Assembly: GCF_032062105.1 (NCBI RefSeq)
Contig: NW_026929738.1
Coordinates: 1-64,000 of the forward strand
DNA: 64,000 bases
Source of the DNA: Saccostrea cucullata
Taxonomy: Eukaryota
Reading direction: 5' to 3'
The notes under the pieces were generated by a model that worked only from the letters and a program-made list of their open reading frames with translations, was not told the DNA's origin and made no database searches. The position numbers and the translations under genes are program-made. This document shows positions 23,798 through 30,100 of this stretch, in pieces; the stretch's first letter is position 1; each line of letters starts with the position of its first letter.

Positions 23798-24723
23798 ATG
23801 GAAGGTGTAATTACCTACATTAAGTCAGGAAAGTACCCGCCTTCAACGCCTGAAAACGAGAAAAGACGAATAAGAAAACTGGCGAAGTCTTTCATCATTG
23901 AGGATGGCAAATTATATCGATACAAAAAATCAAAACTAGGGTGAGTACTTGTAATATTGATATTTATGAGCAGATATAACGTGTGTCATTGTTTTATTTT
24001 ATCAAAGAAAAGTTGTACATTTATGTTTTGGGATGCTTTAATTGAGTAATTTCGATTTCGTTTCCAGTATTTGTGTTTCCTATCATAACACTTTGAATAA
24101 AATATACCATAAACAGCTGCATGATTCCGATTCAATATTGATTAGGTATGAGCACGATGCCTCACACCTTATTGCTTCATGAACAGCAGACTGGAAGCGT
24201 TGTAGTGCATGTACCTCATTATCATAATTATTAAAATCAAATTTTAATCAATTTATTGAATTTAATATATTATCAACACAAACTCTAAAATATTATTTAT
24301 ATATGCAGGTTGATCATGTTGATTTGCAGATAATTGTAATTTAAATTTAACAGAGATATAAGCAAGACATTGTTCATCAAGGATGAGAAAGAAAAGTTCA
24401 AAATTCTAGAAGAATATCACGACAATAACGAACATAGAGGAGTTGTAGCGGTTCTAAAACTTGTGGGCAGTCGTTACTACTGGCCGGAATGGACCGTGTT
24501 CGTCAGAAACTACCGGTATGTATGTATTTATTTTCTACATTGCAACTCATATTGAATACAGGGTTTTTTTTATATACATTGAACATTTTCTTTTCTGACC
24601 ACATTTTAAAAATTCATTGCCTGCAAAAGATCTTATTTTTTTTTTAATTCTGCCATTAGCACGAGTATTAATTTTTGTTTTTTAAGCATAATTTCTTTTT
24701 CTTCTATAGATTAAACATGACAG

Positions 24724-24762
<39 letters not shown>

Positions 24763-26390: not shown

Positions 26391-27157
26391 ACTGGCTAAC
26401 TTTTTTCGAGACCAACTATCTTTCAATTCAAACTTTTTGAGGTAAATTTTCTTTATAACACTACCCTTTGCTGAAATGTGGGGGTGCCAACCTTCCTTTC
26501 AGTAAACATTTTCCATAGTAAAGGTAATGTCGGGAGAAAAAGTGGGGGGGGCCTGGCCCCCCCTGATACTACGCCCCTGGTAAACTTCGCCAAGCGATAG
26601 CTAAGGAGGCCTGATATGCATGTAAATTTCGTGCAGCTGTCTTTGTGGCTGATGCTAAGGAGGCCAAAAAATGCATGTAAATCTCGTGCGTCTGTCTTTA
26701 TGTTTGACTCAGTGGGCGGGAACTGACATTCGAGGCCGCGTGGAATTTAAATCCAATACATGTAGTCTATATTTTTAAAATCTGAATTTACAATTTTATT
26801 TCACTGACTAGGTAGTAGAATATGCCAGGGACATCAAAACGTGGGATAATTTATGCATAATACGTTTCGCCCGTTATGCAAATTATCCCACGATTGCAAC
26901 TATCATTGATGCCCTGGTATACTCTTTTAACTAGACAGTGCTTCCTTGAGATGTCATAATGATTTTTATTTTTAAAAAATACATTATAGTGTCTATCGTG
27001 CAAGCAGTGCGAGAAGAGGAGGAAGTCTTTACAAGGACGTAGTGGTACACAAACAGTGGCAGGTGTGAACAGGTGTCCGGAGAACACAAATACCCAAAAC
27101 TTCCAGCAAGTTCCACAAATGTGTATAAAACAGGAACCCGATATTGAAAATGGATGA
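23798..27157 (+). CDS. Spliced GIN1/Ginger-like integrase N-terminal HHCC zinc-binding protein, about 158 aa, no DDE core; exons 23798-23940, 24354-24519 (or 24515), 26990-27157; may be a pseudogene
   Basis: Reads MEGVITYIKSGKYP..EKRRIRKLAKSFIIEDGKLY / KILEEYHDNNEHRG..RYYWPEW..VRNY / CLSCKQCEKR..IKQEPDIENG*. Intron 1 is GT-AG and in phase. AATAAA at 27185-27190. Confidence 0.7.
24724..24760. repeat. (CA)n microsatellite
   Basis: Direct reading. Confidence 0.95.
25060..26190. mobile_element. Non-autonomous TIR element with ~30-bp subterminal repeats and an ...ACA end (Ginger-like MITE)
   Basis: Left TAGAGTAGG, right CCTACTCTACAACA followed by CCAG; repeated CTCTAGAGYA.GATTT units at both ends. 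Confidence 0.6.
26203..26579. mobile_element. G-run-rich MITE with 5-bp TSD
   Basis: TIR CAGGCGCGTAGCATC / GATACTACGCCCCTG; GTAAA on both sides. Confidence 0.85.
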
Positions 27158-30100
27158 TGTGAAGGGAGATTCTTCTGTTGTCCAAATAAAATGATTGATC
27201 ATATTAATGCAAAAAATGCATGTCTATATATGTAATGTGTTCCAATATATAATACGTATTTTAAAATACATTAATTTTTATGGGGGTTAATTTTCGTTGT
27301 TTTAAATAAAGAGATTTATGTAAACTAAAATGTTACTTTTCACATTTTTATTACTCCTCAAATCTGCGTCCACGAAATGAAATTCCCATGAACCTACTTT
27401 TTTTTCACGAAACCACGAAAATTTGACCCCAAGAAAATATTTGAATTTACAGATACGTTGAGTAGGTAATTAGTCAAATGTCTCCATGGATATCTCCCGC
27501 CCCATTTCACGGTTTCAGATATGCATCGACCATTTTGTAGGCACGTGCATGAGATCAGCCCAATCCGATTATTCTGTACGGAAAAATGCCAAAGAGTCCA
27601 TTTCCTCGTTCAACAACTGCTCCAATTTTAAAGCAGTGAAGATCTCCATCCTTGTTCAGATATCTTTTAAAATGGTTTACGGAGCAGCCCCACCCCTGCA
27701 CTCTGGGCTTCAACACTTGATTAGATAAAGAGAGTTCTAGGTTAATGTAAATAAGAACAAGCAAATTCAAAGAATTGTGGTCCCCCGCTTTCGGTGTCTT
27801 TTTGGGTGAGATGTCATTTTTTTATGACATTTTGTGTCTAATATGAACGCCCTATCATAAGTCATCTATTTAGAAATTATCACTGAACTCCAAGGTCAAG
27901 GTCAAAGGGTTAACGTTCTTGGTATCCAATGAAAAGTTTTCTCAGAAGGATTACATATGTGAAGTATGAAAGCCCTAGCCCTTACCATTCAAACGTTATG
28001 GTCAAAGTTAATCTCCAAGGTCAAGGTCAAAAGGTCAAGGTTGTTGGTATCCAATAAAAGGTCTTGCTACAAAGAATACATATGTGAAATATGAAAGTCC
28101 TAGTAGATACCATTCAAAAGTTATGGCCAAAGTAAAAGTTTGGAATTTTTGTGTAAAAGTGGGTCAAACTCCAAGGTCAAGGTCAAAAGGTCAAATTTGG
28201 TGATACCCAAAGAAAGGTCTTGTCACAAGAAATACACATATGAAATATGAAAGTCATAGCTCCACTATATCAAAAGTTATGGGCATGGTTTAAGTTTTTG
28301 TGACGGACGGACAGACTGACAGACGAATGAGATTTAATGTCCCCTCGCTTTCGGGAAAGCGGGGGACAAAAAAAGTTATTATCTAAAGGGACATATATTG
28401 TGTCCAAAAAAGTCGTTTTACGACCCCAAGTTTGAAACAAAAAATTCAAAGTCTTATAGATCAACTCAAAGATAACTACCAATCAAGATCTTAAAGATAA
28501 TTTGGTCACTTCATGTTTTTTGAAAGGAGTTCTGGGAACCAGGTTTTCCTGCATATGGAGAAGCGCTCTTTGACCCCGATTTGCCCCACAACTTGTAAAT
28601 GAAAATTCCAAAACCACTTCCTAGAAAACATCATGCCCTTAACAGGAAAGGATAGGTCTTTCCAGATGGATTCACAAAGCCCGGGTTTGGTCATCCTTTC
28701 TGGAAGGTATTCGATCATGTGGGACCTTCATACATGTGCGTTCATAACAACTTGGTATACCAACGTAGCTAGAATCAAGGTTTGGTGTTATTTGCTGTTT
28801 TCTTCTCTCTTTTTTTAAATTATGCGAACAATCGCGAAATATTCACACGCAATTACGTATGTTAAATGATATGAATGTCTAACTGTATAAAACATTTGGT
28901 GGATTTCATTTGATACTCCAATTGCAAACTTAAGTACAAATAATTCCTTCTTCATTACATCTTTCTTATTTGTGTACTATTCAGATTTTCCTTGTAAACT
29001 TAATGACCTTATATGATAGGACAGGGATTGCTAGATTTTCAGGCACCTTAAAATTTTAGTCGAAAATTTACAGTACCGGTTCTGCTTTCGATAAACCGTG
29101 TTGTCATTATGGCATTTAAAACAATCGTGAGTTTTGTCTTTTTAAGTTTCATACACTTTGTTCCTGTAAGATGAATTTTTGGTAAGCATTATGTATTTGA
29201 AAGAACTTGATAGTATTTTGCAAGATGTCAGTAGATTTTACTCAAGTAAACCAATTATCTCAAGTATACCCAATGTCTTCATTAAATACATGTAACTTAC
29301 AATAAAGAAGATTCAAAAATAAGTCAGAATAAATCAATAAATATTATGAATATACATTTTAGAGCTTTAATACTTTACAAATATATTATTTGCACGTCCC
29401 TCTTTGAGGGGTATTTTATAGGGATGATGCCTTATGTCGAATCTAGTTTTGAGTCTTCAAGTTATACATTATCCAACAAATGATTTTTTTTGCACGTTGC
29501 AACACATATAAGAACATCTTTTAAAAATATTTTCGGTAAATTGTTCGGTTAAATGGTTGATTCTTGTCGGCTTTATATCATTATAAAGAAATACGGTTGA
29601 CAGGATTTGTCCAACTTTTGAAACTGGTAGAAGTAGGAATGCTTCAATGTCAAACTCTTGGGATAAACCCATACAATAATGAGAAAGTTTCGTCTGACCT
29701 TGCGCATATGCATATGATCTTATCAGTAACTCTGAATTCATGTGACTTGATTTTTTTCCAATGAGGTTTGAAAGTCTGTTTATATTCACTTTGTATGAAG
29801 CTGGTCTCCTTAATGCTATTCGTGTCAGGGGAGCTTAAAATGTTGTATACCCCTATTTTGACCCCCTCAGCAATTAGACTTTCAACGGAGCTCCAAAATA
29901 CCTGTCAAGTGAAAGCCTTCTAGTACATGTATTTAAATCACCCGAGTCATTCAGGTGACCTCTCCGCTTTTGTCCGTCGTCGTCCGTTGGGTGTTATCAT
30001 TTTATCTTTTTCAACTTTTTCTCTTGTTCTGCTGAACCAGTTTCAACCAATTTGGACAGGAAGCCAAAGGGTTACAAAATTCGTGAATTTCACCCCCCCC

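Follow-up and report, generated by a model that had tools for sequence, protein, structure and literature searches.

A spliced oyster gene of apparent Ginger1 origin, predicted to encode an integrase-type zinc finger without a catalytic core

Known systems and the oyster locus

Ginger1 DNA transposons place a YPYY motif right before an H2C2 (HHCC) integrase zinc finger and carry GT-AG introns in their coding region (PMC2836005). The host genes GIN1 and GIN2 are Ginger1-derived and keep the HHCC finger together with a full integrase core (PMC3424704, PMC2836005). Imagin, in its amphipod form, is a single-copy, multi-exon Ginger1 gene that has wholly lost its core and has a disordered tail instead (PMC12863088). 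In ZBTB11, a non-catalytic N-terminal HHCC finger is fused to a BTB domain and C2H2 fingers, and must be intact for repression of TP53 (PMC5384227). The P-element KP protein is a truncated transposase with the N-terminal part only; it is the product of mobile elements with deletions, and its THAP binding and its repression have been demonstrated (PMC7776569). Here we describe a three-exon gene on the forward strand of a 64,000-nucleotide stretch of the Saccostrea cucullata genome (assembly GCF_032062105.1, contig NW_026929738.1, positions 1 to 64,000; hereafter the window), for which an earlier note, made from the letters alone, had proposed a stand-alone integrase-type finger.

The gene shares with Ginger1 (PMC2836005) the YPYY motif directly before the H2C2 domain, a coding sequence interrupted by GT-AG introns, a TGT-type left-end remnant and, through a sister family in the same genome, CCGG flanks; it differs in having no DDE core, GPY/F, OTU or Ulp1 domain and no right end, in occupying a single locus and in its new tail. 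A coreless Ginger1-derived gene is already known in amphipod Imagin (PMC12863088). Whereas YPYY and H2C2 are degenerate in amphipods, both are intact here, next to a visible transposon left end, and shrimp Imagin is described as cytosolic in oocytes; the oyster gene is apparently independent of Imagin and far younger. A GIN1-like protein (P0033) is about 40% identical to the gene over the common part, but in a tree of exon 2, built from 55 columns only, the gene falls among oyster-type exon-2 homologs (97/97) and not with the GIN1-like rows; this tree took in no Imagin or ZBTB11. The ZBTB11 finger resembles the oyster protein in fold, in its H-x29-C-x2-C spacing and in being non-catalytic, whereas the oyster finger is free-standing. 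Taken together, the oyster gene is most likely a host gene of Ginger1 descent, of the kind to which GIN1, GIN2 and Imagin belong; in the literature searched, we found no earlier report of an oyster Ginger-derived gene.

Transcript structure, copy number and ancestry

The gene is real, and the evidence for its junctions is beyond chance. The earlier note had placed three exons correctly (23798-23940, 24354-24519 and 26990-27157, with GT-AG introns), and all the motifs that it named are in frame with the donor at 24519 (158 amino acids, aa). Both junctions (23940-24354 and 24519-26990) are present, in frame, in contigs of a related oyster lineage (organism A) in 4/4 runs from four studies. These four come from 24 listed runs (9 studies), each sharing 0.07 of words with the query and none of them from the window's own lineage; one of the four is recorded as RNA-Seq and the other three are presumed to be RNA, and the evidence consists of assembled contigs, uninformative on level, strand and ends. 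Each run contributes one contig, 90-95% alike to the exons, in which 413 nucleotides (nt; GT..AG) are skipped between exons 1 and 2 and exon 2 is joined in frame to 26990. The contigs continue past the same stop into the untranslated region (UTR), in one run as far as 27314; in the four runs there is no onward splice junction beyond the stop, and no unspliced coverage bridges either intron. The features of the locus are as follows.

23283..23672 (strand unassigned): small inverted-repeat element just upstream, with the 5-nt direct repeat TGTTG at its flanks; outside the gene
23673..23775 (+): probable decayed Ginger1 left end, with a TGTTG start, GTTCCGG-type subterminal repeats and a 24-bp tandem at 23716-23775 (Tandem Repeats Finder)
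23798..23940 (+): coding part of exon 1, with the YPYY motif region and donor AGG/GTGAGT; the transcript extends to at least 23775
23941..24353 (+): intron 1, GT-AG, phase 2, 413 nt; junction in 4/4 RNA runs
24354..24519 (+): exon 2, carrying H70, H75 and the YYW motif; 166 nt in the window allele
24511..24518 (+): insertion site, TA-CCGG-TA where the other haplotype has TA; 6 nt extra
24520..26989 (+): intron 2, GT-AG, phase 0; 2470 nt in the window
26990..27157 (+): coding part of exon 3, with C-x2-C, a basic KRRK patch and a polar tail ending in IKQEP; stop TGA
27158..27314 (+): 3' UTR, with an old dispersed repeat from about 27216 that holds a conserved AATAAA at 27305-27310

The decayed left end probably supplies the promoter of the gene. 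At the other end, the stop and following AATAAA of the earlier note stood in part: the stop is passed in the RNA contigs, but the AATAAA at 27185 is altered in the other haplotype. Because the signal at 27305 is retained there, and one RNA contig reaches 27314, the AATAAA at 27305 is the likelier poly(A) signal.

A second genomic sequence, C1750, matches the window in collinear order for about 16 kb, and we therefore take it as the other haplotype of the same locus. Genome searches returned two full-length matches of 3 with DNA (the window and C1750), two matches among the 150 scored of 237 candidates with exon 2, and 2/3 with exon 3, both at this locus. The gene is thus a single locus with two haplotypes, and no dispersed copies appeared in these searches. 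We had also considered the unit as a mobile non-autonomous element; this was rejected on its single locus and lack of a right end. Large insertions separate the haplotypes: C1750 lacks the segment at about 21100-23400 and much of intron 2, an intron of 863 nt in that haplotype (the excess in the window consists of repeat insertions).

Searches with full Ginger1 and GIN1-like proteins (tblastn and phmmer) gave matches in the 64 kb that are confined to exons 1-2, in agreement with the proposal of a stand-alone YPYY+HHCC module of Ginger1 origin. Beyond these exons, no DDE core, GPY/F, OTU or Ulp1 domain was found in the 64 kb, nor any downstream DDE exon of the kind that the earlier note had named as refuting, and the RNA contigs end in UTR. 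Neither the window nor C1750 has a right end or paired terminal inverted repeats, although a strongly decayed end could escape such a search. With no core, no paired ends and one locus, the gene lies outside the mobile Ginger1 class.

Its relatives are dispersed in the genome. A protein search gave 113 matches among the 150 scored of 434 candidates, including 12 exon-1-only matches at 50-65% identity (54-70% by tblastn), some of which are haplotype pairs. These point to a sister family of elements that start with TGTCG, have GTTCCGG subterminal repeats and place a donor at the same site as exon 1; TGT-type ends, CCGG flanks and subterminal repeats like these are Ginger1 hallmarks (PMC2836005). 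CCGG adjoins 8/9 and 8/10 of the sister-family ends examined, and in one member (L040) the two ends, each with CCGG, are separated by 7.1 kb. The ends are abundant: all 40 scored of 1102 right-end candidates match, as do all 40 scored of 181 left-end candidates. Neither exon 2 nor a catalytic core was found in the 11 sister-family copies examined, 10 kb each. The left-end remnant in the window matches 8/11 sister copies at 78-82% over 45 nt (blastn), collinear with exon 1; its terminal 22-mer alone (16.5 bits, weight matrix) is not above shuffles (mean maximum 13.2, highest 24.5). Exon 2 has its nearest relatives in P0012 (62%) and in a group with Crassostrea gigas LOC117687636, in which the exon-2 homolog is followed by an integrase-core-like fragment. 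These comparisons lead us to trace the gene to a Ginger1 DNA transposon that carried introns.

Ginger1 elements that lack introns and encode H2C2, rve and OTU domains (L049 among them) are also present in the genome; they are 30-48% identical to the gene over the common part, and these coding copies carry end repeats unlike the left end of the gene. No autonomous member of the gene's own subfamily was found among the candidates scored. One element (L050, 2471-7448, in G000:C9925) is a complete Ginger1 with inverted ends of about 150 bp and CCGG on both sides, and L026 and L031 are 99.7% alike; near-identical copies of this kind (L050, L026-L034) suggest recent activity. At G000:C10979:172442-184736, sister-family left and right ends lie around an oppositely oriented transposase gene of the L050 family, possibly a Ginger nested in a Ginger.

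Elsewhere in the window, on the reverse strand, we observed an intronless histone H1 gene (8166-8849; Pfam Linker_histone, E=2e-31), followed by what we take to be a histone-type stem-loop, and an intronless cytochrome P450 open frame (60935-62449; 504 codons between stop codons; Pfam p450, E=1e-115). A 36-bp tandem array of 99 copies (32235-35808) has about half that length in the other haplotype.

The predicted protein and the insertion allele

Pfam Integrase_H2C2 (PF17921) matches exon 2 with E=6e-10, above the curated cut-off, the profile search that the earlier note had proposed. Residues Y7, P14, F32 and Y40 line up with the YPYY of the Ginger1 transposases of the genome. An alternative frame for exon 2 (WP-G-MDRV-like) was considered as the true one and excluded, organism A and the homologs keeping the frame first noted. 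The terminal IKQEP fits the SUMO consensus psi-K-x-E, as the earlier note had pointed out, and is a candidate SUMO site. In shuffled versions of the 49-aa tail, psi-K-x-E arises by chance with a probability of 0.04, and [ILV]-K-x-E-P, a pattern chosen post hoc, with one of 0.003; the motif is unchanged in three sequences, as expected by chance at such divergence, and exon 2 contains another psi-K-x-E.

The available structural model is that of the NCBI protein P0004 (XP_062620477.1, LOC134282059), which has residues 1-102 in common with the in-frame form (predicted local distance difference test 90.5, 64-sequence alignment). With this model, Foldseek places prototype foamy virus (PFV) integrase best (E=5e-4, ranks 1-8), then Ty3; over residues 1-105, VIA-align gives Ty3 integrase a Z of 8.3 (93 aligned, root-mean-square deviation 4.3) and PFV 7.4, the next being 4.6. 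Atlas structure neighbours include GIN1 (TM score 0.84) and ZBTB11 (TM 0.91), while a sequence search of the PDB found no match below E=0.04. The exon 1 part is predicted to adopt the fold of the N-terminal extension seen in foamy-virus and Ty3 integrases. In integrases, this extension and the HHCC part aid multimerisation, in subunits that touch the DNA ends (PMC3185587).

Two further observations concern the module in other proteins. P0005 (labelled abalone), P0008, P0006 and P0014 carry 2-3 integrase H2C2 domains fused to C2H2 fingers or THAP domains; we regard these host-like proteins as further domestications of the module. Among matches in a library of representative proteins, 38/146 HH..YYW motifs have no C-x2-C, many ending right after the same tyrosine, which suggests that an intron at this tyrosine may be widespread.

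The two alleles differ at the exon 2 donor. In C1750 the in-frame donor is the only one, and the product, through GT-AG introns, is a 156-aa protein with isoelectric point 9.7 in which H70-x4-H75-x29-C-x2-C satisfies the H2C2 pattern H-x3-7-H-x23-32-C-x2-C. In the window allele a second donor, at 24515/24516, frameshifts to a 127-aa form in which C-x2-C, and with it the H2C2 pattern, is lost. The earlier note had described both donors and required the in-frame one; this stands, but the frameshifting donor exists only through the 6-nt insertion of the window allele. Because C1750, organism A and L075 all lack the six bases, the insertion is taken as derived and the in-frame donor as ancestral; L075, a distant homolog with 45% identity, has the same 160-nt exon 2 as C1750, with the same phases and bounds. 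Agreement with the splice consensus is 7/9 positions for the new donor and 6/9 for the old one. The 127-aa form is letter for letter P0004, so that the NCBI model uses the 24515 donor. Exclusive use of the frameshifting donor, raised in the earlier note, may hold for this allele; it does not hold for the gene, given C1750 and organism A. Bearing in mind that the donor with the better consensus gives a protein without the two cysteines, the window allele is likely to be partly or wholly defective.

Tc1/mariner-type excision footprints take the form TA+2+2+TA. The TA-CCGG-TA insertion has this form and is likely to be a transposon excision footprint; 3/35 listed inter-haplotype indels of 4-8 nt fall in such palindromes. 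In 214 kb, TACATGTA occurs 6.0-fold over expectation (54 counts), TACCGGTA 3.2-fold (4 counts) and TACTAGTA 3.3-fold (11 counts). TACATGTA was also seen as 6-nt indels among repeat copies (in the window and at loci L006 and L037-L050), a pattern that is likely to be a genome-wide trail of excision footprints; our literature search found no report of palindromic excision footprints in oysters.

Constraint, competing explanations and meaning

Of the three options in the earlier note (a domesticated mini-protein, a repressor of the transposase or a dead relic), domestication fits best, given the single locus, the splicing in a second lineage and the signs of constraint. We lean, by a modest preference, towards a single-locus, spliced, Ginger1-derived gene whose protein is kept by selection and is predicted to act as a small, basic, non-catalytic nuclear zinc-binding adaptor. 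A Ginger1 copy would have inserted and then lost its right end and everything past the zinc finger, in an order of events that we can only propose; its left end, two introns and the YPYY and HHCC exons, the remnants that we observe, would have been retained. Exon 3 would read into a short new tail, and a repeat would have contributed the poly(A) signal; the splicing and the stop are those seen in organism A. The 156-aa product is predicted to fold as an integrase N-terminal extension plus HHCC domain, and, given its basic patches and terminal IKQEP, its most likely job would be that of a transcriptional or chromatin adaptor that binds either DNA or other proteins and does not cut DNA, with its own promoter and the scattered Ginger1 end repeats as first candidate sites. 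In the window allele, the 6-nt insertion would then have added the upstream donor, yielding 127 aa without the two cysteines.

The case for selection comes mainly from organism A. Exons 1-2 have 20 differences, of which 10 are listed; the listed ones comprise 8 silent changes and 2 replacements, which gives a silent divergence per site (pS) of 0.21, a replacement divergence (pN) of 0.016 and a pN/pS of 0.07 (P=2e-4); in the worst case, with all 10 unlisted differences taken as replacements, the ratio is 0.39 (P=0.04). These figures are bounds, from a partial list of differences away from the junctions. Exons 1-2 differ at 20/302 sites (6.6%) vs about 18/107 (~17%) in the distal 3' UTR (P=0.003); the sole coding indel is of 6 nt and in frame, and the stop has no listed change. 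The tail has 4 silent changes, 7 replacements and a 6-nt in-frame insertion, and the two haplotypes differ by 12 silent and 7 replacement changes. The protein is probably under constraint: the ratios of 0.07 to 0.39 lie below the value near 1 that the earlier note had named as refuting, but the controls are mixed.

Several observations weigh against a selected function. One of the two alleles here seems damaged, and the modelled protein, P0004, is the form without C-x2-C. Constraint on the tail is weak (pN/pS 0.45, P=0.17). Sister copies that are presumably dead have exon 1 ratios of about 0.2-0.6 in most pairs, so that, in the Ginger1 family, a low ratio is not diagnostic by itself. In the comparison of the haplotypes, pN (1.9%) does not fall below intron 1 divergence (2.2%, 9/413), and pS (12.5%) lies above the flank background of 4.0%, with pN and intron 1 below it; part of the haplotype signal is therefore high pS. 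The orthology of organism A rests on sequence, not on synteny, and its contigs are compatible with an intronless DNA copy. Protein database searches found no full-length ortholog outside this oyster group: those aimed at orthologs gave the allele's own NCBI model and exon-2 fragments only (1/10, 1/7 and 4/224 candidates), and a representative protein library, which is clustered at 50% and can conceal orthologs, gave 169 matches at E<=0.001, none full length above about 41% identity. Metagenome scans found exon 2 in 0/597 stretches, and a match to the P0024 query in 1/592. Finally, the case is known from sequence, RNA contigs and predicted structure.

Some of these points would suit a transcribed relic equally: a truncated Ginger1 copy, with transposon promoter and introns, that is spliced by inertia and has little or no selected function. 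We consider this possible, though clearly less probable than a selected adaptor. The transposon end remnants that persist at the 5' end, the frameshifting allele, the similar ratios of dead sister copies, the match of haplotype pN to intron 1 divergence and the missing deep orthologs are what a relic would leave; yet, over about 21% silent divergence, the frame and the stop have persisted together with both introns and the four zinc ligands (for which no change is listed), coding divergence is far under that of the UTR, and the lone coding indel is in frame. It is very improbable that a longer gene, or an intron-rich Ginger1 transposase with later exons downstream, has its 5' part in these exons. 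Molluscs and fish do have H2C2 domains fused to C2H2 or THAP (P0005, P0006, P0008 and P0014), and the C. gigas relative runs on into a core-like fragment, but the RNA contigs cross the stop into UTR with no onward junction and no core-like segment is present in the 64 kb.

A more specific function, and an unlikely one, is that of a dedicated dominant-negative Ginger1 repressor, comparable with KP, that occupies Ginger ends or poisons transposase multimers. Like KP (PMC7776569), the gene keeps only the N-terminal part, here a multimerisation and DNA-contact module (PMC5384227, PMC3185587), and the genome offers plentiful sister-family ends and young Ginger1 elements (L026/L031, L050 and L049). 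However, its own subfamily has no autonomous member among the scored candidates, coding Ginger1 copies are just 30-48% identical and have other end repeats, and neither duplication nor fast evolution of an arms-race kind is seen; KP, moreover, has a proven sequence-specific THAP domain, whereas end-specific binding by YPYY+HHCC alone is hypothetical. A broader combination, in which a host-encoded coreless finger binds Ginger1 ends either as a repressor or as a wired transcription factor and a defective allele from an excision scar segregates, seems doubtful to us, but a segregating defective allele would make function testable by genotype comparison.

Returning to the selected adaptor, this is one lineage-restricted case, known from its sequence. 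In the parts of the literature covered, an integrase-type HHCC finger has a described cellular role only inside ZBTB11. The oyster gene amounts to a naturally occurring minimal construct: it has the YPYY+HHCC module by itself, intact, and is apparently so young that the donor transposon end and relatives are still in the genome. If selection is true, the gene would show what YPYY+HHCC does without a core, with a natural defective allele at hand.

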